In this document: positions 15,657 through 60,191 of the stretch, one piece after another
Layout: each line of letters starts with the position of its first letter
Position numbering within the stretch: the first letter of the stretch is position 1
Origin: Alphaproteobacteria bacterium
Lineage (GTDB): Bacteria; Pseudomonadota; Alphaproteobacteria; UBA6615
DNA length: 64,000 nucleotides
Reading direction: 5' to 3'
Assembly (NCBI GenBank): GCA_038117045.1
Contig: JAYOFE010000005.1
Span: 53,078-117,077, forward strand
Program-made: the position numbers and the translations under genes
Notes under the pieces: model-generated
Databases searched by the model: none
The model's input: the letters and a program-made list of their open reading frames with translations, nothing else
What the model was told of the DNA's origin: nothing

Positions 15657-15673
15657 CGGAAAGGAGAGCGGAG

Positions 15674-19224: not shown

Positions 19225-19228
19225 GGCG

Positions 19229-32841: not shown

Positions 32842-32894
32842 TTCCCGCTCAAGCGGAACGTGAAGGCGGCGGTGCCCAGGGTGCCGCCGCTTTT

Positions 32895-34802: not shown

Positions 34803-34878
34803 CGTTCGCCAACACGTGTGAATTCTCCGGCGTCACCCTCGGGTGGCGCCGGAATGCTTTCAAGGGGAAGAAAACGGA

Positions 34879-35775: not shown

Positions 35776-35783
35776 TCCGCTGC

Positions 35784-36791: not shown

Positions 36792-36908
36792 CGCGGCGCT
36801 CCTTTGGGCTGCCTGGCCGGAACAGGCCCGCCGAAACCCGCGGAAACGCGGGTCCGGCGTCCTGGCTTGCACCTGACCCTGCAGCTAGCGTGCCACGATG
36901 GCGCGCAA

Positions 36909-40179: not shown

Positions 40180-41397
40180 ATGAGCCACGCGGCGGAAATC
40201 CACGACAGTCCTGACGTCACTCGTGAAGAGGTGCTCGAACGCGCGGAAGGTGTGCTCCCGATCATCGCGGAGCGGGCAGACCTCGCGGACCAGCAGCGGC
40301 GTCTGCCGGAAGAAAACGTTCGCCTGTTTCAGGATGCCGGGCTGTTTCGCATTCTCCAGCCGAAGCGCGTGGGCGGGTATGAGCTCGACCTGGGGATGCT
40401 GGTGGACACAGGTGCCGTGATTTCCCGTGTCTGCGCATCGAGCGGCTGGAACGTCTCCAACCTTGCAAGCCATCACTGGATGCTGGGTATGTGGCCGAAG
40501 GAAGCGCAGGACGAGGTCTGGGGCGGGAACGGTGAGACGGCCGACAACCTGATCTGCGCCTCGGTGATCTTCCCGGCGGGCCGCGCCAAACGCGTCGACG
40601 GCGGCTACTTGTTGAGCGGGCGCTGGCCGTTCTGCTCGGGCATCGACCCCAGTGACTGGAACATGCTGGGCGGCATGGTCGAGGAAGACACCGACCATCC
40701 GGAAAAGGAGGCGCGGTTGTTCCTGGTCCGCAAGTCGGATCATGAGGTGATCGACACCTGGTTCACCTCAGGCCTGCAGGGCACCGGTTCGAAGGACGCC
40801 GCGGCCGAGGACCTGTTCGTGCCGGAGCACATGACCGTTGCGGCGGATGATGTGAAGGGCGGGCCGACGCCGGGCAGCGCGGTGAACCCCGGCGCGCTCT
40901 ACAAGGTGCCCGTGATTGCGCCCTTTGCATATGTGCTGTCGGGCACGCCGCTTGGCATCGCGGAAGGCGTCTATCGGAACTTTGTCGACGGCATGAAGGC
41001 GCGGACCACCAACTACACCGGCGCGAAGATCGCCGGACTCCAGAATATCCAGATCAAGGTGGCCGAAGCCGGTGCCGCGATCCAGGCAGCCCGCCTGATG
41101 ATGCTGGGTGATTGCGATGAATCCATGGATATCGCCGCACGCGGCGAGGTGCCGGACCTGGAGACCAAGGCCAAGTATCGGCGCAACGGCGCCTATAGCG
41201 CGAACCTGTGCGTTGAGGCCGTGAACACGCTCCACCAGGCCAGCGGCGGTGGTGGGATCTATTCCAAGAACTCCATCGCACGCGCTTTCCGTGACGTGCA
41301 CGCCGCGCGCGCACACATCGCATTCAACATGGATGTGGCGGGCACCACCTTCGGGCGGATCGCGCTGGGTCTCGGCACCGACAATCACGTGCTGTGA
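40180..41397 (+). CDS. Acyl-CoA dehydrogenase-fold flavin-dependent monooxygenase (group D, HsaA/C2-HpaH/DszC-like oxygenase component)
   Basis: The LFRILQPKRVGGYE motif and ACAD-like architecture without a CoA-binding signature suggest the oxygenase component of a two-component system. No reductase partner is adjacent. Confidence 0.65.
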   Translation: MSHAAEIHDSPDVTREEVLERAEGVLPIIAERADLADQQRRLPEENVRLFQDAGLFRILQPKRVGGYELDLGMLVDTGAVISRVCASSGWNVSNLASHHWMLGMWPKEAQDEVWGGNGETADNLICASVIFPAGRAKRVDGGYLLSGRWPFCSGIDPSDWNMLGGMVEEDTDHPEKEARLFLVRKSDHEVIDTWFTSGLQGTGSKDAAAEDLFVPEHMTVAADDVKGGPTPGSAVNPGALYKVPVIAPFAYVLSGTPLGIAEGVYRNFVDGMKARTTNYTGAKIAGLQNIQIKVAEAGAAIQAARLMMLGDCDESMDIAARGEVPDLETKAKYRRNGAYSANLCVEAVNTLHQASGGGGIYSKNSIARAFRDVHAARAHIAFNMDVAGTTFGRIALGLGTDNHVL

Positions 41398-42068
41398 TGT
41401 CGGCCGTTGTCGAAACAACTTCGGCACCGGAACCGGGCAGGGTGCGCCAGCGCCTCTCGCCCGAGGAACGTGAACGCCAGATCGTCGACGGGGCGATCGC
41501 GTACTTTGCCGAAGTGGGCCTGTCGGGGCAGACGCGTGAACTGGCCCAGCGGCTTGGTGTGACCCAGCCGCTGATCTACCGCTATTTCCCGAAAAAGCAG
41601 GACCTGATCGACCGTGTCTATGAGGAAGTCTTCGTCGGTCGCTGGCAGTCGTCCTGGGCAGACCTGATCGCCGACCGCTCGCGCCCGCTGCGTGAGCGAT
41701 TGATCGAATTCTACGGCACCTATGCGCGGGACGTTCTCAACTACGAGTGGATCCGGATTTACATGTTCGCCGGCCTCGCGGGTGAGGACATCAACCGGCG
41801 TTACATTGCGTTGCTTGAAGAGCGCCTGCTACGCCCCATTGTGACCGAGGTTCGCGATGCCGCCGGCGTCGCCGGACCTGATGCCACGCCGATCACCGGA
41901 CTGGAGATCGAGGCGGCGTGGCACATCCATGCAGCCGTTTTCTATTACTTCGTGCGCAAGCACATCTATCGCGCGAAGACCGAACCCGATCTCGATGCCT
42001 TCATTGCCGACGCGGTGGATCGCACCCTGCTGGGCGCCATTGAGGTCACCCGGCGCGAGTTGGGCTAG
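41394..42068 (+). CDS. TetR family transcriptional regulator
   Basis: HTH LSGQTRELAQRLGVTQPLIYRYFPKKQDL. The start (GTGATG) overlaps the stop of the upstream monooxygenase. Confidence 0.8.
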   Translation: MMSAVVETTSAPEPGRVRQRLSPEERERQIVDGAIAYFAEVGLSGQTRELAQRLGVTQPLIYRYFPKKQDLIDRVYEEVFVGRWQSSWADLIADRSRPLRERLIEFYGTYARDVLNYEWIRIYMFAGLAGEDINRRYIALLEERLLRPIVTEVRDAAGVAGPDATPITGLEIEAAWHIHAAVFYYFVRKHIYRAKTEPDLDAFIADAVDRTLLGAIEVTRRELG

Positions 42069-42135: not shown

Positions 42136-42873
42136 TTACTCGGCGGCGGTCGCCGCGGCCTTGGCGGCCTTGCGCTTCGCCCACCAGGTTTTGATGTCGA
42201 GCTTGAAGTGCTCGTAATAGACCTTCGGGAAGATGATCAGGATGTCGTAGAGCGCGATCCAGCCGCCTTTCAGCGTCACCGGGATCGTGATGAACGGTGA
42301 GGCGCCGATAATGACGATGTGCTCGTCCGGATTGATCTTGTCCCGGTTCTGAAGTGCGTTCTCGACATTGTGTGCGAATGACCAGTCGGCCCGGTAGATC
42401 ACCTGGCCTTCCGGGTTGATGACATACGCCGTGTTCGGCAGCAGTCCCCAGTCGTGGTGCCACTTGCCGTCGACGCTGTCGACGACGATCTTGCGCTTCT
42501 CGCCGTAGTCGTCGCGATTGCGTTTTGCGTAGGCGATCTTCTCGTCGATGGTCGTCGCGGGCTTGGCCTTTTCGCCCGGGTGCGCCTCGCGCACATAGAC
42601 GACCAGCCATTCGACGTCGGGATACTTCGCCTGCAGCTCCGCATATGGCTTCACGTTCTTGACGTACATCGGGCAGGTCAGGCTGCCGGATTCGATCACC
42701 AGCCATTTGCCCTTGTAGTCGGAGAGCTTCACCTCGTTCCCGTCGAGATCGGTGAAGGTGTAGTCGTAGTTGACCGTTTCACCCGCCTTTGGGCCGGGAA
42801 AGTAGCCAAGCTCGTAATTGCTCATCTTGAAACGGGGGTAGTTGTAAGTCTCCCCGCGTGCCGGTGCGCCCAT
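42136..42873 (-). CDS. Thioredoxin-fold protein, iodothyronine-deiodinase-like (SGSLTCP motif), with C-terminal hydrophobic/amphipathic tail
   Basis: KLSDYKGKWLVIESGSLTCPMY resembles the deiodinase FGSxT(U/C)P active-site region. The C-terminus ASPFITIPVTLKGGWIALYDILIIFPKVYY is hydrophobic. AAGGGA RBS precedes the ATG at 42873. Confidence 0.4.
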   Translation of the reverse strand: MGAPARGETYNYPRFKMSNYELGYFPGPKAGETVNYDYTFTDLDGNEVKLSDYKGKWLVIESGSLTCPMYVKNVKPYAELQAKYPDVEWLVVYVREAHPGEKAKPATTIDEKIAYAKRNRDDYGEKRKIVVDSVDGKWHHDWGLLPNTAYVINPEGQVIYRADWSFAHNVENALQNRDKINPDEHIVIIGASPFITIPVTLKGGWIALYDILIIFPKVYYEHFKLDIKTWWAKRKAAKAAATAAE

Positions 42874-42984: not shown

Positions 42985-43764
42985 TCAGACCACGGTCCAG
43001 CCGCCGTCGATGGTAAGGCTGGCACCGGTGATCAGTCCGGATGCCGGCGAGGCGAGGAAGACGATGGCACCCGTCACGTCCGAAATCTTGCCCAGGCGGC
43101 CCATCAGGATGCGGTCCATCACGAACTGCCGGAACTCCGGGTTCTCGAACATCGGAGCCGTCATCGGGGTCTCGATGAAAGTCGGGCCGATGCAGTTGGA
43201 GCGGATGTTCTGCGGTGCCAGTTCCGCAGCGATCGCCTTGCTCATTCCCTCGACGGCATGCTTCGTCATGCAATAGACGGTGCGGTTGGGCGAGCCCACA
43301 TGGCCCATCTGCGATGACATATGGATCATCGATCCGCCACGGCCGCCCGCCAGCATGCGCCGGGCGGCGGCCTGGGCAACCGTGAACATGGATTTCACGT
43401 TCAGGTCGAGCAGGAAGTCGAGATTTTCTTCCGAGACATTGACGAAGGGTTCCGGCCGGTTCGAGCCGGCGTTGTTCATCAGGATGTCGATGCGCTCCAG
43501 CCCCTCGATCTTCTCTTGGACCTGGGCAGCATCGGTCACGTCGCAGACGAGGGGGGTGGCCTTGCCGCCCGCCTTCACGATCTCTTCGGCCACGGCGTCC
43601 AGCTCGGACTCGGTGCGGCTGACCAGCACGACCTCGGCACCGGCATCGGCCAGCGACAATGCCGCGCCGCGTCCGAGCCCGCGTCCGGCGCCACTGACGA
43701 CGGCCGTCAGCCCGTCAAGACGAAGGGAAGGGGTCACGAGATCTTGTACTTCGGCCACGCTCAT
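42985..43764 (-). CDS. SDR family oxidoreductase
   Basis: SGAGRGLG Rossmann motif, YCMTK catalytic motif. 259 aa. Confidence 0.85.
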   Translation of the reverse strand: MSVAEVQDLVTPSLRLDGLTAVVSGAGRGLGRGAALSLADAGAEVVLVSRTESELDAVAEEIVKAGGKATPLVCDVTDAAQVQEKIEGLERIDILMNNAGSNRPEPFVNVSEENLDFLLDLNVKSMFTVAQAAARRMLAGGRGGSMIHMSSQMGHVGSPNRTVYCMTKHAVEGMSKAIAAELAPQNIRSNCIGPTFIETPMTAPMFENPEFRQFVMDRILMGRLGKISDVTGAIVFLASPASGLITGASLTIDGGWTVV

Positions 43765-43914
43765 CTGTTTTCGACTCCAATCGACGCATTCAGGTCATTC
43801 GTAAACGATTGCAATCTTGCAATCCGGAATGCGTGCGACCATAACCGAGGCCAACGCGGGTTGTAAGACCGGCAAGATCAACCTTCACGACATGCCAAAG
43901 GCGAGGATTACCAC

Positions 43915-44913
43915 ATGGCGAAAAAGGCGACGGCGAAGAAGAAAACCGCCGGCAAGAAGAAGCTCCTGACCAAGGCCGATGTGCTGCGCAAGTGCAAGCA
44001 GCTCAACAACTGGGGCAAGTGGGGCAAGGACGACCAGCTTGGCGTGTTGAACTACATAACCCCGGAAGATGTTGTTGAGGCCTCAAAGCTGATCCAGAAG
44101 GGCAAGGTTTTCCGCCTGGGTCTGAACCTCGACGAGAAGGGCCCGCAGAACGGACTGTTCGGCGGCCGCTGGAACCCGATGCACCAGATGCTGGCGACCG
44201 GCACCGATGCCGTCCAGGGTATCCAGGAGCCGCTGGTCGGCATGCGCTACGCCGACGACGCCATCAACCTGCCGACCCAGTGTGCGACCCAGTGGGACGC
44301 GCTGGCCCATGTCTTTGAAGGCGACAAGATGTGGAACGGCTATGACGCGACGCTGGTCGACGTGCGCGGCGCCCACAAGAACGGCATCGAGCACTTCGCC
44401 GACAAGATGGTCGGCCGCGGCGTGCTGTTGGACGTCGCCCGCTACAAGCGCAAGAAGCGCCTTGCCGATGGCGAGGAGATCACGATCGAGGATCTCGAGG
44501 CGACCGCCAAGAAGCAGGGCGTCGAAGTGCGCCGTGGCGACTTCGTGCTGGTCAACACCGGCCAGATGGCTGACTGCCTCGACAAGGGCGACTGGGGTGG
44601 ATACGCCGGTGGCGATGCGCCGGGCCTGGCCTTCGAGACCGTGGACTGGATTCACAAGAAGGAAATCGCAGGCATCTGCTCAGACACCTGGGGCATCGAG
44701 GTTCGCCCGAACCGCAGCGTCCCGGGCATCAACCAGCCCTGGCACTGGGTGACGATCCCGCATATTGGCATCGTCCACGGCGAGATCTGGTACCTGCGCG
44801 AGCTGGTCGAGGACTGCAAGGAAGACGGCCGTTACGAGTTCTTCCTCTGCGCCCCGCCGCTGGTCATCACCCGCGGCACGGGTTCGCCGATCAATCCGCA
44901 GGCGATCAAGTAG
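43915..44913 (+). CDS. Cyclase family protein (PF04199-like; kynurenine formamidase/isatin hydrolase superfamily), copy 1, with Lys/Ala-rich N-terminal tail
   Basis: Core region ...NLPTQCATQWDALAHVF...DVARY... . N-terminus MAKKATAKKKTAGKKKLLTK is absent from the two paralogs. Confidence 0.7.
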   Translation: MAKKATAKKKTAGKKKLLTKADVLRKCKQLNNWGKWGKDDQLGVLNYITPEDVVEASKLIQKGKVFRLGLNLDEKGPQNGLFGGRWNPMHQMLATGTDAVQGIQEPLVGMRYADDAINLPTQCATQWDALAHVFEGDKMWNGYDATLVDVRGAHKNGIEHFADKMVGRGVLLDVARYKRKKRLADGEEITIEDLEATAKKQGVEVRRGDFVLVNTGQMADCLDKGDWGGYAGGDAPGLAFETVDWIHKKEIAGICSDTWGIEVRPNRSVPGINQPWHWVTIPHIGIVHGEIWYLRELVEDCKEDGRYEFFLCAPPLVITRGTGSPINPQAIK

Positions 44914-45021
44914 CGCTTCTGCGTCATTCGACGTTAGTATCGACGGCGCCGTCCCGATGGGATGGCGCCGTTTCGATTCAAGTGTGCCGGAAAGGCACCG
45001 TTCTGGGGAGAACGCAAGAAA

Positions 45022-45987
45022 ATGCCACGCAGATACGATGAGGTGTCGCTGACCATGGCCGATCTCGAGGTCATGGCCGAGAAATGCTCGAACTGGGGCC
45101 GCTGGGGCCCCGACGACGAGATCGGGACCCTGAATTTCATCGGGTCCGAGGAGCTGAAGCATGCCGCGAACATGGTGAAGCAGGGCAAGTCGATCTCGCT
45201 TGGGCTCGACTTCAACCAGGAAGGCCCGCAGACCGGCCGGTTCCGCCGTTTCAACCCGGTCCACTCCATGCTGGCGACCGGCACCGATGCGTGCGCGGGC
45301 AAGCACACCCAGCCCAACATCCAGTACGCCGACGACATGGTGACGATGCCGCTGCAGTGCGGCACCCAGTGGGACGCGCTGAGCCACATCTTCAACGACG
45401 GCAAAATGTGGAACGGCTACGACGCCTCGCTGGTCGATGCGAACGGCGCGAAGAAGAACGGCATCGAGAAGGTGAAGGCCAAGACGGTCGGGCGCGGCAT
45501 CCTGCTGGATATCGCGCGCTGGGCCGGAAAGGACTCACTCGACGACGGCACGGCGATTACCTGCGACGATCTTGAGAAATGCGCCGCCGACCAGGGTGTC
45601 GAAGTGCGCCGCGGTGACATCGTCGTGGTGCGCACCGGCCACATGGAACGTTGCCTGGCAAAGGGTGACTGGACGGGATACTCCGGTGGCGATTCGCCGG
45701 GCATGGCCTTCGAGACGGCGGAGTGGGCGTTCGAGAAGGAGATTGCCGCAGTCTGCACCGACACCTGGGGTTGCGAGGTGCGGCCGAACGAGATCGCCGA
45801 GGCATTCCAGCCCTGGCACTGGGTGGTCATCCCGAAGATGGGGCTCACACTGGGCGAGATTTTTTATCTCAAGGACATCGGTGCCGATTGCGCGGATGAC
45901 GGCGTGTACGAGTTCCTGTTCTGCGCGCCGCCGCTGCCGATCACGGGTGCCGTCGGTTCGCCGATCAACCCCATCGCGCTGAAATAG
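45022..45987 (+). CDS. Cyclase family protein, copy 2
   Basis: MPRRYDEVSLTMADLEVMAEKCSNWGRWGPDDE ... MPLQCGTQWDALSHIF. Start chosen by alignment with copy 3. GGGGAG RBS upstream. Confidence 0.75.
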   Translation: MPRRYDEVSLTMADLEVMAEKCSNWGRWGPDDEIGTLNFIGSEELKHAANMVKQGKSISLGLDFNQEGPQTGRFRRFNPVHSMLATGTDACAGKHTQPNIQYADDMVTMPLQCGTQWDALSHIFNDGKMWNGYDASLVDANGAKKNGIEKVKAKTVGRGILLDIARWAGKDSLDDGTAITCDDLEKCAADQGVEVRRGDIVVVRTGHMERCLAKGDWTGYSGGDSPGMAFETAEWAFEKEIAAVCTDTWGCEVRPNEIAEAFQPWHWVVIPKMGLTLGEIFYLKDIGADCADDGVYEFLFCAPPLPITGAVGSPINPIALK

Positions 45988-46044
45988 CCTTAGACAAGCA
46001 AACAACTGGCGACGAACGCCGGATCATAAGAGAGGAAAAGACAG

Positions 46045-47028
46045 ATGCATCGCTACGACGACCCGGCCTACCGGTTTGACATGGACCTGATCAAGGAAAA
46101 GTCCGAGCGCAACAAGAACTGGGGGAAATGGGGACCTGACGACGAGTGGGGCACCATCAATTATGTGGGCGATGAAGAGCGCAAGGCGGCAGCTGGGCTC
46201 GTCAAGAAGGGCCAGGTCTTCTCGCTCGGCCTGAACTTCGACAGCAACGGACCGCAGCGCGGCCTGTTCGGTGGACGCTGGAATCCGATCCACACCATGC
46301 TCGCGACGGGTACGGATGCGGTTGCCGGAAAACAGACGGTTCCGGGGAAGAAGTACGCGAGCCAGTACGCCGACGATGCGGTCTCTTTGCCGCTGCAGTG
46401 CGGCACCCAGTGGGACGCTCTGGGCCATGTCTTTAACAGTGACAAGATGTGGAACGGCTATGACGCGACTTTGGTGGGCGCGAATGGTGCGGAGAAAAAC
46501 GCCATCCACAAGATGCGCGACAAGATGGTCGGCCGCGGCATCCTGCTCGACATTGCGCGCTGGGCCGGCGTCGACTCCCTGGATGACGGCACGGCCATCG
46601 ATGCCGACGACCTGAACCAGTGCGCGAAGGACCAGGGTGTCGAGATTCGCCGTGGCGACTTCGTGATCTACCGCACGGGCCACATGGAGCGCTGCCTCGC
46701 GGCGGGCGAGTGGGGCGGGTATGCCGGCGGCGATGCGCCGGGCGTGTCGTTCCATACCTGTGACTGGATGCGCGACATGGAGATTGCCGCGATCTGCGCC
46801 GATACGTGGGGCTGTGAGGTCATCCCGAACGAGACGGATGATGTGTTCCAGCCCTGGCACTGGATCGTGATCCCACAGATCGGCATCACCATGGGCGAGA
46901 TCTTCTACCTGAAGGATCTCGCCAACGATTGTGCGGAGGACAAGGTGTACGAGTTCATGTTCGTCGCACCGCCGCTCCCGATTACCAAGGGCGTCGGTTC
47001 CCCGATCAATCCGCAGGCGATCAAGTAA
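46045..47028 (+). CDS. Cyclase family protein, copy 3
   Basis: MHRYDDPAYRFDMDLIKEKSERNKNWGKWGPDDE ... LPLQCGTQWDALGHVF. AGAGAGGAAAAG RBS. Confidence 0.75.
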   Translation: MHRYDDPAYRFDMDLIKEKSERNKNWGKWGPDDEWGTINYVGDEERKAAAGLVKKGQVFSLGLNFDSNGPQRGLFGGRWNPIHTMLATGTDAVAGKQTVPGKKYASQYADDAVSLPLQCGTQWDALGHVFNSDKMWNGYDATLVGANGAEKNAIHKMRDKMVGRGILLDIARWAGVDSLDDGTAIDADDLNQCAKDQGVEIRRGDFVIYRTGHMERCLAAGEWGGYAGGDAPGVSFHTCDWMRDMEIAAICADTWGCEVIPNETDDVFQPWHWIVIPQIGITMGEIFYLKDLANDCAEDKVYEFMFVAPPLPITKGVGSPINPQAIK

Positions 47029-47142
47029 CTTCGGGCGCGAATTCTTTGACGAGGGGCGGCGCCGGCCTTGCCGGTGCCGCCTCGCGCGTTTAAGACACAG
47101 GCAGATTCAGCGGCAAATTCAGCCAAACGAGGACGGTGAACT

Positions 47143-48456
47143 ATGGCGATCGAATTCCTGAAGCAGGGCATGGATTCCGAGGCGACGGACGAGGCGGACA
47201 CCAAGGTTCGCGGGATCGTCGAAGGGATCCTCAGCGATGTTAAGGCGCGCGGCGATGCAGCGGTGCGCGAGCTGTCGGAGAAGTTCGACAAGTGGACGCC
47301 GGAGAGCTTCCGCCTGTCCGATGCGCAGATCAAGGAACTGATGGATTCTCTGCCGGAGCAGACCATCGAAGACATCAAGTTCGCGCAGGCGCAGGTTCGC
47401 AACTTTGCGCAGATCCAGCGTGACGCGCTGAAGGATGTCGAGGTCGAGACGCTTCCCGGTGTGAAGCTCGGCCACAAGAATATTCCTGTGAACAGCGTGG
47501 GCTGCTACGTCCCCGGCGGCCGCTATCCGATGGTCGCCTCGGCGCATATGTCGGTGGTCACGGCCAAGGTGGCCGGCGTGCCGCGCGTGATCGCGTGCAC
47601 CCCGCCGAACGAGGGCGGTCCGCATGCGGCCACCATCGCGGCGATGCACCTTGCGGGCGCGGACGAAATCTATTGTCTGGGCGGTGTCCAGGCGGTGGCC
47701 GCCATGGGTATCGGTACGGAAACCATCCAGGGCTGTGACATGCTGGTGGGACCGGGCAACGCCTATGTCGCCGAGGCCAAGCGCCAGCTTTATGGCCGCG
47801 TGGGCATCGACCTCTTCGCCGGCCCGACCGAGGTCCTCGTGGTCGCCGATCACACGGCCGACGTGGAAATGGTTGTCGTCGATTTGCTGGGGCAGGCCGA
47901 GCATGGGCCGAACTCGCCGGCGGCGGTGATCACCACATCGCGCGAACTGGCAGAAGCCATTCCCGGTGAGATCGAACGCCAGCTCAAGCTGCTGCCGACA
48001 GCGGATGTGGCATCCATCGCGTGGAAGGACTACGGCCAGATCATTCTGTGCGACACCCGCGAGGAGATGCGGTCCGAAGCCGACCGACTGGCCTACGAGC
48101 ATGTCGAGATCCTGAGCGAGGATCCGCGGTGGTTCCTGGACAACATGACCAACTTCGGTGCGCTGTTCATCGGTCCGGAGACGAACGTCTCATACGGCGA
48201 CAAGGTGATCGGCACCAACCACACACTTCCGACCAAGGGTGCTGCCCGCTACACGGGCGGCCTGTGGGTGGGCAAGTTCATGAAGACCTGCACCTACCAG
48301 CAGATCACCGAGGAGGCGAGCGCGCTGGTGGGCGACTATTGCTCGCGGCTTTGCGAAGTCGAGCGCTTCTGGGGCCACAAGGAACAGGCCGATCTGCGCC
48401 TGCGTCGCTATGCGGGCCGCAACATCGGTATCGGTGCGACCAACGCGGCCGAGTAA
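47143..48456 (+). CDS. Histidinol dehydrogenase family protein (HisD-like paralog; context suggests a catabolic alcohol/aldehyde dehydrogenase such as HpsN-like)
   Basis: 437 aa with HisD-family sequence (e.g. …[31 protein letters not shown]…). It is not in a his operon. It sits beside a TRAP transporter. Confidence 0.8.
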
Positions 48457-48476
48457 TCGGTCTCACAGAACGGCGA

Positions 48477-48510
48477 TAAAAAAAGGGCGGCCCGGGGGCC
48501 GCCCTTTTTC
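48477..48510. terminator. Bidirectional rho-independent terminator
   Basis: AAAAAGGGCGGCCC, loop GGG, GGCCGCCCTTTTTC. Flanked by the convergent hisD-like and dctP genes. Confidence 0.7.
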
Positions 48511-48528
48511 GTGTGAGCTCCGTCGGAA

Positions 48529-49614
48529 CTACTTGATTGTGTAGACGTGGACCGGCTTGGCGCCGTTTTCCTGCGCCAGGTCGATCAGGCGCTTGAAGGT
48601 CGCCTTGCCCGGGAAGCCTTGGTCTTCGTATTCCTGAGCCTTCTGGTTGACCCAGGGCTCGATGGCGCGCGCCATCTCAAGCTGGGTGTCCGGGTCGATG
48701 TTGCGAACGGTCACGCCCTGCTTGCGCAGGTTGTCGAGAGCCGTCACGAACTTCGTCTCGGACTCGTCCTCGACCGCCTGCTGGTACACGACGACCTCTT
48801 CCATGATGATCTTCTTCACGTCATCCGGAATCTTGGCCCAGGTGTCCTTGTTGACCGTCAGCGGGTACGCGAGGACCGAACCCCAGCCCATGGTCGTGTA
48901 GTACTTCGCGACCTCGCCGAACTTGAAGCCGTAGTACGGGGCCGGGAAGATCACGACGCCATCGAACACGCCGGACTGCAGCGCGTTATAGACTTCGTTC
49001 AGGTTGGTCTGGACCTTCGCCGCGCCGGCATAGTCGAGCCAGGGCAGGTTCGGACCGGCCGCGCCGATCTTTACACCCTTGAGCTCTTCCATCTTCGTCC
49101 AAGGGAAGTCGGTGCCGAGACCGTAGTCGTCGAACGCACCGCCGCCCAGATAGGTCTGATTGTAGTTGTCCGAGAACACGGTGGAGAAGTAGTCGAACTC
49201 CTCATGCACCTTCCGGGTCGTCGGACCCATGATGTGCGGATCCCCCGAGATGAACGGGGTGAAGTAGTTCAGGTTGTGGACGAACAGCTTCGTCGGCTCG
49301 AAGCACGAGCACATCGCGCCGAAGTCAACCAGACCCTTCTGGGTCGATTCCAGAACCTCGAACAGGTTGGCGATGGTGCCGCCGTAACCCTCGATGAACC
49401 GGACCGTGTGCTGCGTCTCCGCGGCGACGCGCTTCGTTACGTTCGGGACGAACGTCTTCTGAAGCTGGTTCACGGTCGCCAGCGGTGCGGCCGGATGGCC
49501 GGCGGCAATGCGGAACGTGAAGCTGTCGGCATAGGCCGAGGTTGCTGTTGCGGCGGCGGCAACGGCCAGAACGCCCGCTGCTGCGAATCCCGCAAGGTGT
49601 TTACGTGCTTTCAC
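48529..49614 (-). CDS. dctP: TRAP transporter substrate-binding protein (DctP family)
   Basis: Signal peptide KARKHLAGFAAAGVLAVAAAATATSAYA after a GTG start at 49614 with GGGAGA RBS. The ORF-track start at 49698 is a likely over-extension. Confidence 0.8.
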   Translation of the reverse strand: MKARKHLAGFAAAGVLAVAAAATATSAYADSFTFRIAAGHPAAPLATVNQLQKTFVPNVTKRVAAETQHTVRFIEGYGGTIANLFEVLESTQKGLVDFGAMCSCFEPTKLFVHNLNYFTPFISGDPHIMGPTTRKVHEEFDYFSTVFSDNYNQTYLGGGAFDDYGLGTDFPWTKMEELKGVKIGAAGPNLPWLDYAGAAKVQTNLNEVYNALQSGVFDGVVIFPAPYYGFKFGEVAKYYTTMGWGSVLAYPLTVNKDTWAKIPDDVKKIIMEEVVVYQQAVEDESETKFVTALDNLRKQGVTVRNIDPDTQLEMARAIEPWVNQKAQEYEDQGFPGKATFKRLIDLAQENGAKPVHVYTIK

Positions 49615-50013
49615 AGATCGTCTCCCATTAATTTTGATTTCGTTGTTACGAAATGACACAGAGCCGAACCGGGCAGACAGCACGGTACGCCTGTACATGT
49701 CGGTATGGAGAAAAGCAGGAATCGGCGATAATTACCAGAGCCGATCAAGGTATTGTCAGGTTCGGTGGTCATTACTCGGACTCCGTACTTGGATCAACTG
49801 CCGATTGCACTCTGGAATTGGCTCTTTGATTCGTTGGTTCCAGTTCGGCAGTTGGCATCATCGGATGCCAATGTGGCGAGATCATCACGGTCGATTGATC
49901 GAATTTGGGCGCTAAAGTGTCAAAAATGCTCAAACTTCCGGAATCTCGCATTTACACCGGCGCGCAGTCTGCTAACTTGCCGTGAATGTATTCCGCGTGG
50001 GGGTGCGCGGAGC

Positions 50014-50038
50014 GGTGCCCGTTCTCAGGACGGGCACC
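50014..50038 (+). promoter_or_regulatory. Strong hairpin immediately upstream of the dctQ RBS (attenuator or protein-binding site candidate)
   Basis: GGTGCCCGT-tctcagg-ACGGGCACC, 9-bp perfect stem, followed by CGGGTTTATTGG and then GAGGAAATCG ATG. Confidence 0.3.
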
Positions 50039-50060
50039 CGGGTTTATTGGGAGGAAATCG

Positions 50061-50597
50061 ATGATCGATCGCGTTGTGTACACGGTAACGCGCGTGTGCA
50101 GCACCATTGCCGCTTTCTGGGCGATGGCACTTGCGTTTCTGATCCTCTACGACATCACGGGGCGCACATTCTTCAATGTACCGTTCGACGGAACGATCGA
50201 GATTGTGGCCAATTCGATGGTCTCGATCCTGTTCCTGCAGATGCCGTACACGATCTATCGCGGTGCCCATCTGCGCACGACCGTGATCTATCAGAATGTC
50301 GCGCCGATCGTCCGGCGGCTGATCGACATCCTGGCCTCCGGGCTGGGCGTGTGGTTCTTCATTTCGATCGCGCTAGGCGGTTACGAGGACATGGTCATCG
50401 GCTGGAACGTCGATGAGCGTGAAGGCGAGGGATCGATCCGTGTGCCGGTGTATCCGGTCCGCTCGGTGATCTTTGCGTTCGCGATTGTCTCGGCCGCGAC
50501 CTATCTCGTGTTGTTCTGCCACTTCCTGTTTGGCGGCAAGGCCATCACGGAAGAGGAAGAGGGCCGGCATGAGCCCATCGAAGGCTCACAGATCTAA
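50061..50597 (+). CDS. dctQ: TRAP transporter small permease (DctQ family)
   Basis: 178 aa, 4 TM segments. ATG at 50061 after GGGAGGAAA. Confidence 0.8.
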   Translation: MIDRVVYTVTRVCSTIAAFWAMALAFLILYDITGRTFFNVPFDGTIEIVANSMVSILFLQMPYTIYRGAHLRTTVIYQNVAPIVRRLIDILASGLGVWFFISIALGGYEDMVIGWNVDEREGEGSIRVPVYPVRSVIFAFAIVSAATYLVLFCHFLFGGKAITEEEEGRHEPIEGSQI

Positions 50598-50671
50598 CGA
50601 ACTGGCATAACCCGCACGGAGCGCCCCGAGCTGGCGATCCGGAAAACAGGGATAATAAGGGGGCGTAAATA

Positions 50672-52021
50672 ATGGATCCGACTACAGCAGTACTGCTGAT
50701 GCTGGTTGCGCTGATTATTGGCGTGATCGGCGGCATCCATATCGGACTATCGCTTGGCGTTACGGCGCTCGTCGGCACGTGGCTGATGTTCGGCTCGTAC
50801 GAGCTGGCGGCCGGCCAGGTCGGCAGTACATCGTTCTTCGCATTGCGCGACTTCGTTTTTGCGGTCATCCCGCTGTTCGTCCTTATGGGTGAATTCGTGA
50901 GCAGATCCGGTTCCGCCGGTGACCTCTACAGGGTGATGAACTTTGGCCTGAAGCGCATTCCGGGACGCCTGGCCGTGGCGACGGTCGCAGGCAACGCGGT
51001 TTTCGCAGCCGTGACAGGAACCAGCCTGGCGTCGGCAGCAGCGTTCTCGCGTCTCGCCTATCCGGAAATGATCGCGGCCGGTTACAGCCGTAAATATGCG
51101 TTGGGCTCGGTCGCGGGCAGCGCCTGCCTGGGCATGCTGATCCCGCCGAGCGTATTGCTCATCATCTGGGGCATCGTGACAGAAATCTCGATCGGGTTTC
51201 TGTTCCTTGCAGGGATTTTCCCCGGCATCTTGCTCGCGCTTGTTATGGCCTTCTATTGCTCCGGCGTAGCCATTCTCAAGCCGAAAACCGCTCCGGCGGT
51301 GGATTTGAGTAACGAGAAACTGACCAGTCAGGAAATCATCAGCGGCTGTGGCGTGATTTTCCTTATCTTTGCCGTGCTGGGCAGCATCTGGCTGGGACTT
51401 GCGACACCGTCCGAGGCGGCGGCACTCGGAGCGTTGTTCGGCCTTATTCTGGCTCTGATTAAGGGTGTTAGATGGGAAGGTGTCCGCGACGCGATCGTGG
51501 ATTCGGGCAAAGTTATCGCACCTATCCTGTTCCTGCTGTTGACAGCTCAGATGTATTCGCGGCTGCTGACGACAGGTGGTGTGGTCAACCTGATTACCGA
51601 AACCGTTGGCGGTGCGGGCATTGATCCTAATGTTGCCGTACTGCTCATGATCATCATCTGGCTGGTGCTTGGCACGCTGCTGGACTCAGGCTCGATCATC
51701 CTGCTGACCGTCCCGATCTTCTGGCCGATTGCAGAAGGCTTTGGGTATAACCCCTATGCATTTGCGATCATCGGAATCCTGGCCATCGAGGCAGGGTTGT
51801 TGACGCCGCCGGTCGGGCTTCTTGTTTATGCGGTTAAAGGCTCTGTACCTGACCGCACGGTTCAGCTCGGTGAGATTTTCGCAGGGTCGGTGCCGTACTG
51901 GTTGCTGATCCTTCTGGTCATGGCACTGGTCTGGGTGGTGCCGCAGTTGGCAACCATTCCGATTGACTGGAGTTCCGGGAATACAACATTCCATCGGATA
52001 GGTTTGTTCCCATCCCAATAG
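50672..52021 (+). CDS. dctM: TRAP transporter large permease (DctM family)
   Basis: 449 aa polytopic membrane protein. N-terminus MDPTTAVLLMLVALIIGVIGGIHIGLSLGV. Confidence 0.85.
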   Translation: MDPTTAVLLMLVALIIGVIGGIHIGLSLGVTALVGTWLMFGSYELAAGQVGSTSFFALRDFVFAVIPLFVLMGEFVSRSGSAGDLYRVMNFGLKRIPGRLAVATVAGNAVFAAVTGTSLASAAAFSRLAYPEMIAAGYSRKYALGSVAGSACLGMLIPPSVLLIIWGIVTEISIGFLFLAGIFPGILLALVMAFYCSGVAILKPKTAPAVDLSNEKLTSQEIISGCGVIFLIFAVLGSIWLGLATPSEAAALGALFGLILALIKGVRWEGVRDAIVDSGKVIAPILFLLLTAQMYSRLLTTGGVVNLITETVGGAGIDPNVAVLLMIIIWLVLGTLLDSGSIILLTVPIFWPIAEGFGYNPYAFAIIGILAIEAGLLTPPVGLLVYAVKGSVPDRTVQLGEIFAGSVPYWLLILLVMALVWVVPQLATIPIDWSSGNTTFHRIGLFPSQ

Positions 52022-52041
52022 GAACAAATCACCATATACAA

Positions 52042-52076
52042 GAAGCGGCGCAGGCAACTGCGCCGCTTTTTTTGAT
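52042..52076 (+). terminator. Rho-independent terminator after dctM
   Basis: AAGCGGCGCAG, loop GCAA, CTGCGCCGCTT, then TTTTTT. Confidence 0.7.
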
Positions 52077-52155: not shown

Positions 52156-52632
52156 TCAGCCGCGGCGTTCCTCAGCGACGCGCTCGATGGCATCGACGAT
52201 TGCCTGGTAGCCCGTGCAACGGCAGTAGTTGCCGGAGATGAACTCACGGATTTCCTCGCGGGACGGGGAGGCGGACTTCGACAGGAGTTCCTGTGCCGTC
52301 AGCAGCATGCCGGGGGTACAGAAGCCGCACTGGACGGCGTTGCGTTCGTGGAACGCCTTCTGCAGGTCCGCAATCTCACCGGAATCCGAGAGACCTTCGA
52401 TTGTCTCGACGACTGCGCCGTCGGCCTGTGCTGCCAGCATCAGGCACCCGCGAACGATATTCCCGTCCACGCGGATCGTGCAGGCGCCGCACACGCCATG
52501 CTCGCAGCCGACATGGCTGCCTGTCAGTTCCATCTCGTAGCGCACGAAATCCACCAGGTTGGTGCGCGCAGGGACCCTGCGGGTGACCTGCTGGCCGTTG
52601 ATGGTCAGAGTGATGTCGACGTTCTTGTCCAT
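52156..52632 (-). CDS. coxS: (2Fe-2S)-binding small subunit of a molybdopterin hydroxylase (CoxS/XdhC-Fe-S family)
   Basis: CEHGVCGACT and CGFCTPG ... CRCTGY cysteine motifs. 158 aa. Confidence 0.9.
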   Translation of the reverse strand: MDKNVDITLTINGQQVTRRVPARTNLVDFVRYEMELTGSHVGCEHGVCGACTIRVDGNIVRGCLMLAAQADGAVVETIEGLSDSGEIADLQKAFHERNAVQCGFCTPGMLLTAQELLSKSASPSREEIREFISGNYCRCTGYQAIVDAIERVAEERRG

Positions 52633-52651: not shown

Positions 52652-53506
52652 TCAGGCCGCGAGTTCGGCGAGCGCGCGCTTGGTCAGCACGCGGGCCAGA
52701 TGCATTTTCATTTCTGCCGGACCGTTCAGGTCGGCCATCGGGTCGAGGTCGGCGCCGAGCGCGTCCTGCGCCTTCTTCACGCTGTCCTCGTTGTGGGACT
52801 GTCCTTCCAGCGCGGACATGGCGCTCCGGGCGAGGATCGGCTGGTCGCCGGCACCCAGGAAGCCGATGCGAACATCAGAGAATGTGCCGCCTTCCACCCG
52901 GCCCTGAACGGCGATGCCGACGATGGCGTAATCGCCGTGACGCCGCGCCAGTTCCATGAAGGAGGTGCGCTCGCCGTCCTTGATGACGGGGATCTCAGCC
53001 GCAACGAGAAGCTCGCTTTCTTCACGTGCCGTCTCGAAAAGGCCCTTGAAGAAGTCGTCGGCCGCGACCTTGCGCTGGCCGCCGCGGCCCTGCAGGACGA
53101 AGGTCGCACCGAGAGCACGTGTCACGGCTGGCATTTCAGCAGCCGGATCCGCGAAGGCGATGGAGCCGCCGAAGGTGCCGCGGTTCCGGATGGCGTGGTG
53201 CGCCACATGCGGCATCGCCTTGGCGATCAGCGGTGCGTGCTTTGCAACCTCGGGAGAGTCGAGGACTTCCGAATGCCGTGTAAGTGCGCCGATCGTGAGG
53301 GTGTCGCCGTTCACCGAGATACCGGACAAGCCATCAAGGTGGTTGATGTCGATCAGGACCTCGGGCGCGGACAGGCGCATGTTGAGGGTCGCCATGAGGC
53401 TCTGGCCGCCGGCAAGAATACGTGCGTCGTCGCCGTGCTCATCGAGTAGGTCGAATACCTGCTCGAGGCTATCGGCGCGCACATAGGAAAAAGGTGCGGG
53501 TTTCAA
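52652..53506 (-). CDS. coxM: FAD-binding medium subunit of a molybdopterin hydroxylase (CoxM family)
   Basis: ILAGGQSLMATLNMR FAD-binding motif. 284 aa. The stop is 20 nt upstream of the coxS start. Confidence 0.85.
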   Translation of the reverse strand: MKPAPFSYVRADSLEQVFDLLDEHGDDARILAGGQSLMATLNMRLSAPEVLIDINHLDGLSGISVNGDTLTIGALTRHSEVLDSPEVAKHAPLIAKAMPHVAHHAIRNRGTFGGSIAFADPAAEMPAVTRALGATFVLQGRGGQRKVAADDFFKGLFETAREESELLVAAEIPVIKDGERTSFMELARRHGDYAIVGIAVQGRVEGGTFSDVRIGFLGAGDQPILARSAMSALEGQSHNEDSVKKAQDALGADLDPMADLNGPAEMKMHLARVLTKRALAELAA

Positions 53507-55300: not shown

Positions 55301-56020
55301 TTACGGGGCCACCTGGTGGGCCGGGATGGGCATGCCGGATTGCTTCACGATCGCGATCGTGTCGCGCAGATGGGCGAGGTGCAGTTTCACCGCGCCATCG
55401 GCGTCGCGGTTGATGGCGGCGTCCATGATTGCCTTATGTTCGGTGCTTTCGTGCCGGTCGGGGTAGCTGATGGCCGCGGCGAGCTGTCGGTAGCGGCTGG
55501 CTTGGTCGGCCAGCAGGTCGCAATAGGCGAGCAGGCGAGGGGAGCCGCAATTGGCGAAGATCGCCATATGGAACGCTCGATGACGCTCCTCCCATTCGGC
55601 GTTAAAGGCATAGCCTTCACGTGTTGCCGAACGTGGCTCGCGGGACAGGTGGTGGAAGGCCACCACGATGTCGTCCTCCCATTTGTCATCCGAGTTTGCG
55701 ATGGACTGGCGCAGTGCGATTTCCTCGATCCAGCATCGGGTGCGGACAAGGTCCTCCAGGTCGTCCAGACCTATGCCGGCAACGTGAAAGCCTTTCTGGT
55801 CCTGGAAACAGACGAGCTTTTCGGCCACCAGGCGATTGAGAGCCTCGCGCACGGGGCTGATCCCGACCTTGTAGCGCTCGCGCAGCATATTGGAGCCGAG
55901 CTTATGGCCCGGGGCCAACGCACCGCCGATGATGTCGCGGCGCAACCGGTCATAGACCGATGTCGCGATTGTCGTTCCGCCGGTGCGGCTCGGGGCCACG
56001 GAAGTCGTTTTCGTCGCCAT
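55301..56020 (-). CDS. GntR family transcriptional regulator (FadR/FCD subfamily)
   Basis: N-terminal winged HTH VYDRLRRDIIGGALAPGHKLGSNMLRERYKVGISPVREALNRL, plus a C-terminal FCD-like domain. Confidence 0.8.
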   Translation of the reverse strand: MATKTTSVAPSRTGGTTIATSVYDRLRRDIIGGALAPGHKLGSNMLRERYKVGISPVREALNRLVAEKLVCFQDQKGFHVAGIGLDDLEDLVRTRCWIEEIALRQSIANSDDKWEDDIVVAFHHLSREPRSATREGYAFNAEWEERHRAFHMAIFANCGSPRLLAYCDLLADQASRYRQLAAAISYPDRHESTEHKAIMDAAINRDADGAVKLHLAHLRDTIAIVKQSGMPIPAHQVAP

Positions 56021-56057
56021 GAAAATGTGCCTGAATAGAACGTCGGCTCAATCATAC

Positions 56058-56094
56058 ATTCCAAATTTTGCGAACAGTTGAAAAAATTTGGAAT
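56058..56094. promoter_or_regulatory. Perfect 12-bp inverted repeat (candidate operator) in the GntR / TRAP divergent promoter
   Basis: ATTCCAAATTTT (56058-56069), 13 nt spacer, AAAATTTGGAAT (56083-56094). Confidence 0.4.
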
Positions 56095-56198
56095 ATCGTT
56101 GACTCGATGCCATGGGACCCGCTTCAATCCCATCCAAGAACAAGCGTCAGCAAGAATGCAGATCATCAAAGACCGGGTATTTCCCGAGGGAGAAAACG

Positions 56199-57296
56199 AT
56201 GAGCCAGAAGAAATCCTTTGCACGTAAACTTGCCGCCGTCGGGGCCGGTGCCGTCCTGGCGTCGGCCATGTTCGCGGCCCCGTCCTCAGCTGCCGAGAAA
56301 ATCAAGCTCGCGGCCATCGACGGTTATTCGCCGAAGTCGCTGTGGGTGAAGGAATTCATTGACTTCTATATTCCTGAGATCGATAAGCGGCTGGCCAAGA
56401 CCGGCAACTACGAGATCGAGTGGAACCAGGCCTGGGGCCAGATCGTGAAGGTTCGCGGTGTTCTCGGTGGCCTGCAGAAGGGCCTCGGTGACATCGGTGT
56501 TGTGACCACCGTGTTCCATGCAGACAAGGTGCCGCTGCAGCTGGTGGCCTATGCGACGCCCTTTGTCACCAACGATCCGAAGCTCGTTGCCCAGACCATT
56601 GATGATCTCGCGAACCAGCATGCCGAGTTCAAGCAGGCCTTTACCAAGTTCAATCAGGTCTACCTGACGAACATGGCGGTGCTTGATACCTACCAGATCT
56701 TTGCCAAGAAGCCGGTCGCACACCTGGTCGATATGAACGGGCTCAAGATCGGCAGTGCGGGCCTGAACCTGCGCTGGCTCGAAGGCTTCGGCGCCGCCGG
56801 CGTCGCGGGCAGCCTAGTTCACTACTACAACCAGCTCAGCACCGGCGTCCTCGACGCGATCATGCTGTGGCCGGAAGCCGTTGTGGGCGGCAAGATGTAC
56901 GAAGTTGCGCCCTACATGCTGAAGGCGGATCTCGGCACGGCGAATTCCAAGGCGATCACTGTAAATATGGACCGCTGGAAGGACCTGCCTGATGAGGTTC
57001 GTACGGTCCTGCAGGAAGCCGCGCTTGATTACCGCGATCACATGGCTGATGAAGCACTCAAGCTGGCCGATTCCAGCCAGAAGGCCTTTGTGGCCAATGG
57101 CGGCAACGTCGCCGTACTGAGCCAGGCCGAGCGCCAGGAATGGGCAAACAAGATGCCGAACGTGGCGTCCGATTGGGTTGCCGCGCGCCAGAAGGAAGGC
57201 CTGCCGGGTGCGACCATCATGAAGTCCTACATGGGCGTGATGCGCGCCAAGAATCAGCCGATCCTGCGTCACTGGGACCGCGAAATCGGTTCCTGA
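56199..57296 (+). CDS. dctP: TRAP transporter substrate-binding protein (DctP family)
   Basis: Signal peptide MSQKKSFARKLAAVGAGAVLASAMFAAPSSAA. GAGGGAGAAAA RBS. 365 aa. Confidence 0.8.
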   Translation: MSQKKSFARKLAAVGAGAVLASAMFAAPSSAAEKIKLAAIDGYSPKSLWVKEFIDFYIPEIDKRLAKTGNYEIEWNQAWGQIVKVRGVLGGLQKGLGDIGVVTTVFHADKVPLQLVAYATPFVTNDPKLVAQTIDDLANQHAEFKQAFTKFNQVYLTNMAVLDTYQIFAKKPVAHLVDMNGLKIGSAGLNLRWLEGFGAAGVAGSLVHYYNQLSTGVLDAIMLWPEAVVGGKMYEVAPYMLKADLGTANSKAITVNMDRWKDLPDEVRTVLQEAALDYRDHMADEALKLADSSQKAFVANGGNVAVLSQAERQEWANKMPNVASDWVAARQKEGLPGATIMKSYMGVMRAKNQPILRHWDREIGS

Positions 57297-57320
57297 TCCC
57301 GGCCAACCAGGGGTTTCGGT

Positions 57321-57866: not shown

Positions 57867-57892
57867 GCGCGGTCCGGAGAGGTTGAGCCGAA

Positions 57893-59227: not shown

Positions 59228-59295
59228 GCGGACCGGCTGGCGTTCCCCGGGTCGAAACCGCATAATCGCGGCCTTCTGTTACCCAGGGGAATGAG

Positions 59296-60177: not shown

Positions 60178-60191
60178 CGCAGGCCTTCGCC

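Follow-up and report, generated by a model that had tools for sequence, protein, structure and literature searches.

What would a bacterium do with three consecutive cyclase-family genes that are followed by a histidinol-dehydrogenase-like (HisD-like) gene and by an importer of the tripartite ATP-independent periplasmic (TRAP) type? This is the question raised by positions 43915 to 52021 of the DNA analysed here, a 64-kb window (positions 1–64,000, to which all coordinates refer) from contig JAYOFE010000005.1 of the Alphaproteobacteria assembly GCA_038117045.1 (lineage UBA6615). The answer that we favour, at slightly better than even, is that the locus encodes a catabolic module for a small organic compound that would be neither 2,3-dihydroxypropane-1-sulfonate (DHPS) nor kynurenine, and that a TetR-family protein encoded nearby is its probable regulator. 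All the genes named in a preliminary description of the locus were recovered in the list of open reading frames (ORFs) where it had placed them.

The three cyclase genes, cyc1, cyc2 and cyc3, fall in family PF04199 (80–89 bits, against a gathering cut-off of 23.1), and their products are 55–66% identical in pairs, cyc2 and cyc3 being the closest (66%). Instead of the canonical binuclear metal motif of the family, HxGTHxDxPxH, all three carry QC[AG]TQWDALxH; the Pfam assignments and the ORF list agree with the preliminary description both in the three tandem genes and in their motif variants. That the Gln-containing stretch is the counterpart of the metal motif, as had also been proposed, is confirmed by a BLASTP alignment in which QCATQWDALAH of cyc1 faces, residue by residue, HCGTHVDAPYH of a canonical family member from Emticicia, and the same equivalence is drawn in the paper on structure 5IBZ (Popovic et al. 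2017, PMC5341072). The suggestion that the motif was undescribed does not hold. That paper reports the structure of MGS0169, a metal-dependent carboxylesterase from a marine metagenome, in which the first two His of the cyclase motif are Gln; it names the motif Gln-x3-Gln-x-Asp-x3-His and shows that the Q127A, Q131A and D133A substitutions each bring a loss of activity. The enzyme is stimulated by Mn2+ > Mg2+ > Co2+, has a kcat/KM of ~2e5 M-1 s-1 on p-nitrophenyl acetate, and its esterase activity exceeds its weak isatin hydrolase activity ~1000-fold. The Gln-for-His exchange was therefore already published in 2017 and is no novelty by itself.

Cyc1 matches 5IBZ with an E value of 2e-70 (the cyclases are 38–43% identical to MGS0169), and its residues F82, R85, Q122, Q126, D128, H132, H277 and E290 correspond to F84, R87, Q127, Q131, D133, H137, H286 and E299 of MGS0169. 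None of these eight functional residues varies among the three paralogs or across a 37-sequence alignment. Cyc3 has more than 5,000 homologues, and the Gln-Gln (Q-Q) motif is present in all 120 among the matches listed, where Q122, Q126, D128 and H132 are likewise invariant. The cyclases are thus best placed, judged by these residues, as new members of the known MGS0169-type esterase subgroup. Compared with orthologues in related metagenome genomes, the three copies have dN/dS values of 0.05–0.25 (cyc1 0.05–0.25, cyc3 0.06–0.17), and each paralog is under purifying selection; the Gln residues are therefore maintained and are not the product of decay, as the preliminary description had argued. 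An AlphaFold model of cyc1 recovers the fold, with 5IBZ as the top Foldseek match followed by isatin hydrolases and KynB, and our residue-level statements rest on the 5IBZ alignment and the accompanying paper, not on that model.

The paralogs diverge most from one another in a loop at residues 100–111, the equivalent of which in MGS0169 reaches into the pocket of the partner subunit (PMC5341072); they therefore probably act on related substrates or on successive bonds, and the divergence of the loop suggests different substrate ranges for the three enzymes. The cyclase tree pairs cyc2 with cyc3, puts cyc1 in another clade and has MGS0169 as the outgroup. The triplication is lineage-specific: among the loci of related genomes (labelled L001 and so on), three tandem copies occur only here and in L010, two in L001, L008 and L009, and one elsewhere, and an orthologue of cyc2 was recovered from L010 only. 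Two further observations concern these proteins. Cyc1 begins with a basic, Lys/Ala-rich tail (MAKKATAKKKTAGKKKLL..., encoded at 43915–43990), which is shared by its orthologues in L001, L008 and L009 and is absent from cyc2, cyc3 and MGS0169. In some relatives His takes the place of the second Gln, the tally being 38 Q-Q and 35 Q-H proteins; the Q-H subgroup (motif QGATHWDALGH; L035–L087, mainly Xanthobacteraceae and Pseudolabrys) makes up about half of the related cyclases, and its genes are linked to HisD-like and molybdenum (Mo) hydroxylase genes, never to TRAP genes.

The second key enzyme carries the public name histidinol dehydrogenase because it passes the hisD models (PF00815, 467 bits; TIGR00069, 456.6 bits against a cut-off of 243.8). 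When it is used as a query against solved structures, HpsN (8V35), the sulfopropanediol 3-dehydrogenase, scores 416 bits and the HisD structures only 210–267, and it is 49% identical to CpHpsN of Cupriavidus pinatubonensis. The Zn ligands of HpsN (Gln248, His251, Asp352, His411) are kept as Q251, H254, D353 and H412, the catalytic Glu318/His319 as E319/H320, and K354, H360 and the NAD-specifying D49 are also present. HpsN is defined by a loop that reads G-R-Y-[A/S]-H, where His126 binds Zn and then the sulfonate, and that in HisD reads G-S-A-P-L (PMC11382572). Here it reads G-R-Y-P-M, with His126 replaced by Met130, and this differs from both HisD forms (G-S-A-P-L or G-x-A-x-Y), as does an Asp-Lys pair where HisD has Asp-Tyr. 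GRYPM is found in all 120 close homologues among the matches listed, and the loop is identical in L001 and in plasmid-borne homologues of Agrobacterium, Emticicia (Bacteroidota) and Geobacillus (Bacillota). In a neighbour-joining tree, drawn without bootstrap from a search of 1.84 billion representatives, the GRYPM clade adjoins the HpsN clade, both with Asp-Lys, apart from a large Asp-Tyr group with HisD-type loops. The protein thus appears to be neither a housekeeping HisD nor a bona fide HpsN, and GRYPM to mark a sister clade of HpsN, lacking the sulfonate-binding His, that is found in three phyla. The Pfam-scanned genes of the window include no other PF00815 gene and no his gene, and the placement of the dehydrogenase outside histidine biosynthesis and with HpsN, put forward in the preliminary description, is upheld by the tree and by the bit scores. 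The analogy with HpsN that it drew holds for fold and grouping and goes no further: Met replaces the sulfonate-binding His, and the importer's binding protein has no anion-clamping Arg. In the open-access literature, the only PF00815 activities that turned up are those of HisD and of HpsN (on DHPS or cysteinolate).

An argument that these genes belong together is their recurrence. When one genome per species was searched with the cyclase alignment, 80 loci were obtained from Alpha-, Beta- and Gammaproteobacteria and from metagenome-assembled genomes labelled Streptomycetaceae and Acidobacteriota. By tblastn, and within 10 kb of the cyclase, a HisD-like gene is present in 39 of these loci, a HisD-like gene together with a short-chain dehydrogenase/reductase (SDR) gene in 31, Mo-hydroxylase subunits in 34 and TRAP genes in 14; the cyclase is single-copy in 77. 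The gene orders vary: methylmalonate-semialdehyde dehydrogenase-cyclase-HisD-like-SDR-TetR-ABC transporter in Pusillimonas, with CoxL and CoxS on the opposite side; CoxS-CoxM-CoxL-cyclase-SDR-MFS transporter in Paraburkholderia, with HisD-like and LacI genes nearby; and CoxM-CoxS-CoxL-cyclase-HisD-like-SDR in Xanthobacteraceae. Every clade of the cyclase tree, the MGS0169 outgroup aside, has HisD-linked members. Elsewhere the HisD-like/SDR pair has no cyclase with it; its neighbours there are FAH, VOC and RraA-family genes, sugar-acid dehydratases and LacI regulators. Cyclase, HisD-like and SDR genes thus form a widespread, conserved set, joined by a TetR gene in three of the genomes, by varying transporters and, often, by Mo hydroxylases. 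The SDR is a core member of the conserved trio of cyclase, HisD-like enzyme and SDR. Homology identifies it no further than as a generic reductase of the polyol/sugar-acid type, L-xylulose reductase, KduD and gluconate 5-dehydrogenase being the best solved relatives, and pyridoxal 4-dehydrogenase was not seen among the 60 solved SDR relatives listed. The proposal of an undescribed catabolic module needs qualifying: the neighbourhood is conserved in many genomes, while the cyclase triplication is confined to one lineage and the motif had been published. A described pathway combining a cyclase with a HisD-like enzyme was not found in the open-access literature, and may be described elsewhere. 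Methylmalonate-semialdehyde dehydrogenase was rejected as a general partner: in Pusillimonas and in Bacillus its gene is next to the HisD-like one, but none of the 80 loci has it. In L049, L053, L054 and L056 the surroundings of the module include a PEP-synthase-like gene (PPDK_N plus mobile domain) paired with an M24 creatinase/DddP-like gene.

The module has in fact been seen before, on plasmid pRL8 of Rhizobium leguminosarum 3841. The order there is coxG, an alpha/beta hydrolase gene, CoxM-S-L, a LivJ-type ABC importer, a methyl-accepting chemotaxis protein gene, LysR, a nucleotidyltransferase-family gene, MoaA, a TetR gene divergent from the cyclase gene pRL80036, the SDR gene pRL80037 and XdhC, with the HisD-like gene pRL80041, pntAB and acs farther on. 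The counterparts are 61–63% (cyclase, with QASTQWDALCH), 51% (SDR), 65% (HisD-like) and 45% (TetR) identical to those of the window. Ramachandran et al. (2011, PMC3333776) found that pRL80036 is induced 6–10 fold and pRL80037 2.5–3.5 fold, specifically in the pea rhizosphere, and that coxG and coxM mutants compete less well there; the pRL80041 protein has been detected in bacteroids. The cyclase was read in that study as a formylkynurenine formamidase, a reading that is unlikely because of its Q-Q motif.

How the substrate would enter the cell is suggested by the TRAP genes. All three subunits are present (P, PF03480; Q, PF04290; M, PF06808), as had been described, with the difference that dctQ and dctM are two separate genes and not a fusion. 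In DctP the Arg that clamps the ligand (the equivalent of SiaP Arg147) is Gly: in four independent alignments with four solved solute-binding proteins, the Gly of 'VKIGAAG' faces the Arg of 'KIR/KVR/EVR'. This Arg is present in 96.8% of DctP proteins and acts as a carboxylate selectivity filter, and in the few proteins known to lack it the ligand is atypical and not a carboxylate, for example ethanolamine (Fischer et al. 2015); in HpsK proteins, two Arg residues anchor the sulfonate of DHPS. The binding protein thus belongs to a rare Arg-less DctP class, and without the clamping Arg it probably takes a neutral or zwitterionic ligand and not a simple organic acid. The best solved relative of DctP scores only 52 bits, and homology names no ligand. 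The Arg-less signature recurs in every cyclase-linked DctP recovered, and an Arg-less TRAP system lies near 11 of the 38 Q-Q cyclases, versus none of the 35 Q-H cyclases. The signature is also found in a second TRAP system of the window (region 55301–61121; DctP2 56112–57296, DctQ2 57321–57866, DctM2 57893–59227), which sits behind a GntR gene and is followed by genes for a polysaccharide deacetylase and a 2-hydroxyacid dehydrogenase; a similar polysaccharide deacetylase gene stands beside CoxLSM and an Arg-less TRAP system in the SAR116 locus L067. In the long region between the divergent dctP and dctQ, a strong GC-rich hairpin of 11 pairs (50014–50038) lies just 5' of the dctQ start, and it matches no Rfam family.

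For regulation, the preliminary description had seen no obvious candidate. The TetR gene upstream is a plausible one: its product is 39% identical to the TetR adjacent to the module in Pusillimonas (L088) and 45% to that of pRL8 (pRL80035), TetR homologues adjoin the module in three lineages, and it is the probable repressor of the module, judging from these relatives. A near-palindrome that occurs only once in the window lies in the region separating the SDR gene from cyc1; it and GTGCGACCATAACCGA are kept at the equivalent place in L008 and L009 and form a candidate operator/promoter. No operator common to this region and the dctP/dctQ intergenic region was found when the two were compared, nor any riboswitch that would name a ligand, nor another RNA.

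From these data we infer the kind of bond cleaved, an order of steps and a kind of substrate. The TRAP system would import a compound that is probably neutral or zwitterionic. The three cyclases would be divalent-metal (Mn/Zn) hydrolases, with a site formed by Gln-x3-Gln-x-Asp-x3-His plus Arg, His and Glu, that cleave an ester or a lactone or, less likely, a cyclic amide, and between them they would cover related substrates or successive bonds. The HpsN-like Zn/NAD+ enzyme would then oxidise an exposed primary alcohol to the aldehyde and on to the carboxylate, in a four-electron reaction, while the SDR would oxidise or epimerise a neighbouring secondary hydroxyl, as HpsO does beside HpsN; in many genomes a Mo hydroxylase would supply or consume an intermediate. 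One possible shape of such a pathway would be oxidation of a lactol to a lactone by the SDR, opening of the ring by the cyclase and conversion of a hydroxymethyl group to a carboxylate by the HisD-like enzyme, which would parallel the degradation of vitamin B6 from pyridoxal through 4-pyridoxolactone and 4-pyridoxate to a dicarboxylate. More tentatively, at chances appreciably short of even, the trio (Q-Q or Q-H cyclase, GRYPM dehydrogenase and SDR) may constitute a pathway, widespread but undescribed, that deals with a natural product, neutral or zwitterionic, released by plants and marine phototrophs and taken up through Arg-less TRAP, ABC or MFS systems, the plant compound being a pea-exudate inducer of the pRL8 genes.

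Several observations weigh against a catabolic module of this kind, or loosen parts of it. The TRAP system is syntenic with the full gene set only in the close relatives L001, L008, L009 and L010, and the more distant loci with an Arg-less TRAP have the cyclase without a HisD-like gene. Lys354, which contacts the sulfonate in HpsN, is retained in the HisD-like protein, so that the dehydrogenase probably still acts on a substrate with an anionic group, at least once hydrolysis, by ring opening or ester cleavage for example, has taken place. The AlphaFold model of cyc1 has a pLDDT below 50 at residues 77–153, which include the motif, and gives no residue-level evidence. Finally, the Mo hydroxylase is a loose partner. 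No large subunit adjoins the CoxS and CoxM genes that follow dctM: the sole MoCoBD large subunit of the window lies 48 kb away (1469–3925), beside two aminotransferase and alpha/beta hydrolase genes, and a single orthologous Mo-hydroxylase partner is ruled out by large subunits that are only 26–32% identical across genomes. Given this low identity and the lack of an adjacent large subunit here, we take the Mo enzyme to be a partner of the module that is frequent but varies. The CoxS and CoxM of the window are possibly associated with it: Fer2 and FAD_binding_5 genes occupy the same position in L001, L008 and L010, and the [2Fe-2S] and FAD-binding subunits are 50% and 30% identical to pRL80024 and pRL80023, respectively.

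It is on this point that the alternative which survives best turns. The locus might instead degrade an N-heterocyclic or other heteroaromatic compound, with a Mo hydroxylase making a lactam or lactone, the cyclases acting as ring-amide hydrolases like isatin hydrolase or enamidase, and the HisD-like enzyme oxidising a hydroxymethyl or aldehyde side group, carried by the ring or by the product of its opening. We regard this as a serious alternative and as an unlikely one. It would account for the Mo-hydroxylase subunits near the cyclase in those 34 loci, in three different gene orders, for XdhC and MoaA in the pRL8 cluster, and for the SAR116 locus L067, which joins LysR, an Arg-less TRAP, a canonical cyclase, LLM, an alpha/beta hydrolase, a Q-Q cyclase, an FAD monooxygenase, CoxLSM and a polysaccharide deacetylase; isochorismatase-like amidase genes recur as well (12 loci), PF04199 includes lactam hydrolases, and MGS0169 has its weak activity on isatin. 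The paper on MGS0169, however, gives that enzyme a preference of about 1000-fold for esters over isatin (PMC5341072). Moreover, the linked Mo enzymes are not orthologous, and the NCBIfam models that match them best, in every case under the curated cut-offs, describe aldehyde oxidoreductases and glyceraldehyde dehydrogenases; no Mo enzyme lies within 10 kb in about half of the cyclase-HisD-like-SDR loci, and in the window the only large subunit is the distant one.

Much less probable is a pathway for DHPS or a related sulfonate, with the HisD-like enzyme as HpsN, the SDR as HpsO and the TRAP system as HpsKLM, as names of the Joint Genome Institute (JGI) and KEGG style would suggest. JGI calls many close homologues of the dehydrogenase 'sulfopropanediol 3-dehydrogenase', and the other public name of the clade is 'histidinol dehydrogenase', names that both conflict with the defining residues; HpsN structures are its best solved relatives, the adjacent PF13561 SDR and TRAP genes mimic hpsO and hpsKLM, and the relatives are marine. 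Four features speak against it: (i) the GRYPM loop, in which the sulfonate- and Zn-binding His126 is Met, is kept in the 120 close homologues among the matches listed and in three phyla; (ii) the canonical TRAP Arg position holds Gly, where HpsK has two sulfonate-anchoring Arg; (iii) the Pfam-scanned genes of the 64-kb window include no HpsP-type Zn-dependent alcohol dehydrogenase (PF00107/PF08240), SuyAB, CuyA or Xsc; and (iv) members of the GRYPM clade come also from soil bacteria and from Firmicutes, where their contexts are those of sugar acids and aromatics.

Scarcely more credible, and if anything a shade less so, is the idea that these genes are neighbours by descent only and share no pathway. 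The TRAP linkage to the full set in close relatives alone would fit it, as would a window that is a dense patchwork of unrelated catabolic genes, but distant taxa also have the cyclase, HisD-like and SDR genes side by side, in rearranged orders and with different transporters, and the cyclase and SDR genes of pRL8 are co-induced. That the database names are simply right, the cyclases being kynurenine formamidases of tryptophan catabolism and the HisD-like enzyme a biosynthetic histidinol dehydrogenase, can practically be discounted and is already contradicted at the level of sequence: the source labels, the TIGR00069 score (456 bits, above the 243.8 cut-off) and the formamidase assignment of the pRL8 homologue in 2011 are outweighed by Gln at the first two metal-ligand His of KynB in cyc1–3, an esterase as the closest characterised cyclase relative, the lack of a tryptophan dioxygenase or kynureninase among the Pfam-scanned window genes, the lower scores to HisD structures (210–267 bits versus 416 to HpsN), Asp-Lys in place of the Asp-Tyr of HisD, GRYPM in place of GSAPL, and a window without a his operon.

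The module thus delimited has the layout given in the table below: the three cyclase genes are co-directional and are followed by the HisD-like gene and the convergent dctP. The upstream SDR, deiodinase-like, flavin monooxygenase and TetR genes are all as first described. The TetR gene start overlaps the 3' end of the HsaA-like monooxygenase gene, which is possibly an accessory gene of the module, adjoining it in L008, L010 and L025 and overall in 5 of the 80 loci; the deiodinase-like gene is kept beside the SDR gene solely in the close relatives L001, L008 and L009. Two other patches of the window lie farther upstream. Positions 13533–20380, a second paralog-rich hydrolase cluster, hold a hydantoinase/oxoprolinase A gene, then two tandem B-subunit genes and a beta-lactamase-family (esterase-like) gene, and positions 29964–36872 form an aromatic-catabolism patch with two IclR genes and genes for a family III CoA-transferase, a nitroreductase, an intradiol (catechol/hydroxyquinol-type) dioxygenase, a 3-hydroxyisobutyrate-dehydrogenase-like and a 2-oxoglutarate-dioxygenase-like protein.

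Table. Genes and sequence elements of the predicted module and its flanks, in window coordinates.
Feature	Position	Strand	Basis
HsaA/HpaB(C2)-like flavin-dependent monooxygenase, oxygenase component	40180..41397	+	PF08028; NCBIfam HsaA-like, 313 bits, under cut-off
TetR-family regulator	41394..42068	+	homology
Deiodinase-like thioredoxin-fold protein	42136..42873	-	PF00837, 30.6 bits
SDR oxidoreductase	42985..43764	-	PF13561, 207 bits; divergent from cyc1
Operator/promoter-like element (candidate), SDR-cyc1 intergenic	43808..43848	.	near-palindrome ATTGCAATCTTGCAAT ... GTGCGACCATAACCGA
cyc1, PF04199	43915..44913	+	E 3e-25; QCATQWDALAH
cyc2, PF04199	45022..45987	+	E 4e-25; QCGTQWDALSH; alternative ATG at 44962
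cyc3, PF04199	46045..47028	+	E 3e-22; QCGTQWDALGH
HisD-like (HpsN-like) dehydrogenase	47143..48456	+	PF00815, 467 bits
DctP, TRAP solute-binding protein	48529..49614	-	PF03480 partial, 81 bits
DctQ, TRAP small membrane subunit	50061..50597	+	PF04290
DctM, TRAP large membrane subunit	50672..52021	+	PF06808, 232 bits
Bidirectional terminator-like hairpin	52040-52071		3' of dctM
Mo hydroxylase [2Fe-2S] subunit (CoxS)	52156-52632	-	Fer2 homology
Mo hydroxylase FAD-binding subunit (CoxM)	52652-53506	-	FAD_binding_5 homology

These assignments matter beyond the present genome. The public names of both key enzymes are probably wrong, the Q-Q cyclases being called 'kynurenine formamidase' against their defining residues, a mislabelling that could bias how DHPS and tryptophan catabolism are counted in metagenomes. 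Ocean DHPS turnover is gauged from hpsN counts, and including the GRYPM clade in them would inflate the estimates. If the trio does degrade a natural product of plants and marine phototrophs, GRYPM would represent a new catalytic specificity, the third within the histidinol dehydrogenase family, and a sizeable share of the marine 'hpsN' and 'kynurenine formamidase' counts would belong to its pathway. The Arg-less subfamily of TRAP binding proteins linked to the cyclases points to an atypical, non-acid TRAP substrate. The gene trio recurs in soil, rhizosphere and marine bacteria, and the cultured R. leguminosarum with its pRL8 offers a genetic handle.

Several known systems can be set beside the locus. 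The KynB and isatin hydrolase enzymes share with the cyclases the core fold (Foldseek probability 1.0, TM ~0.3–0.5) and the Asp and third His of the motif, but are shorter (~200–260 aa versus ~325 aa), have His where cyc1–3 have Gln at the first two ligand positions, and show marginal sequence similarity (E 0.86 to 4J0N). The Zn-dependent, cyclase-like trans-dienelactone hydrolase of Pseudomonas reinekei MT1 is reported to hydrolyse a lactone in aromatic degradation; its context is the degradation of chlorosalicylate. We know of no HisD-like partner for it. Like cyc1–3, it is reported to carry the Gln-x3-Gln-x-Asp-x3-His motif (PMC5341072). MGS0169 shares the long (~320 aa) architecture, the modified motif, the extra active-site Phe, Arg, His and Glu, and a marine origin; it is, however, an outgroup to the whole clade of cyc1–3, and here three diverged tandem copies are tied to an HpsN-like dehydrogenase and an SDR. 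With the HpsN system (8V35, with HpsO and HpsKLM) the likeness extends to the fold of the dehydrogenase and to its ligands of Zn, its catalytic Glu and His, its Asp-Lys pair and the residue that sets the preference for NAD, and both have an adjacent PF13561 SDR and a TRAP importer; the present locus differs in lacking HpsP and a sulfolyase, in GRYPM instead of GRY[A/S]H, in a binding protein without sulfonate-anchoring Arg, and in a dehydrogenase from a separate sister clade. A further parallel is the pRL8 region (pRL80021–pRL80041), which has a homologous TetR, Q-Q cyclase, SDR and HisD-like enzyme, with CoxS/M-type subunits nearby, and which differs in having one cyclase instead of three, a LivJ-type ABC importer instead of a TRAP system, and a complete CoxMSL set adjacent to the module.

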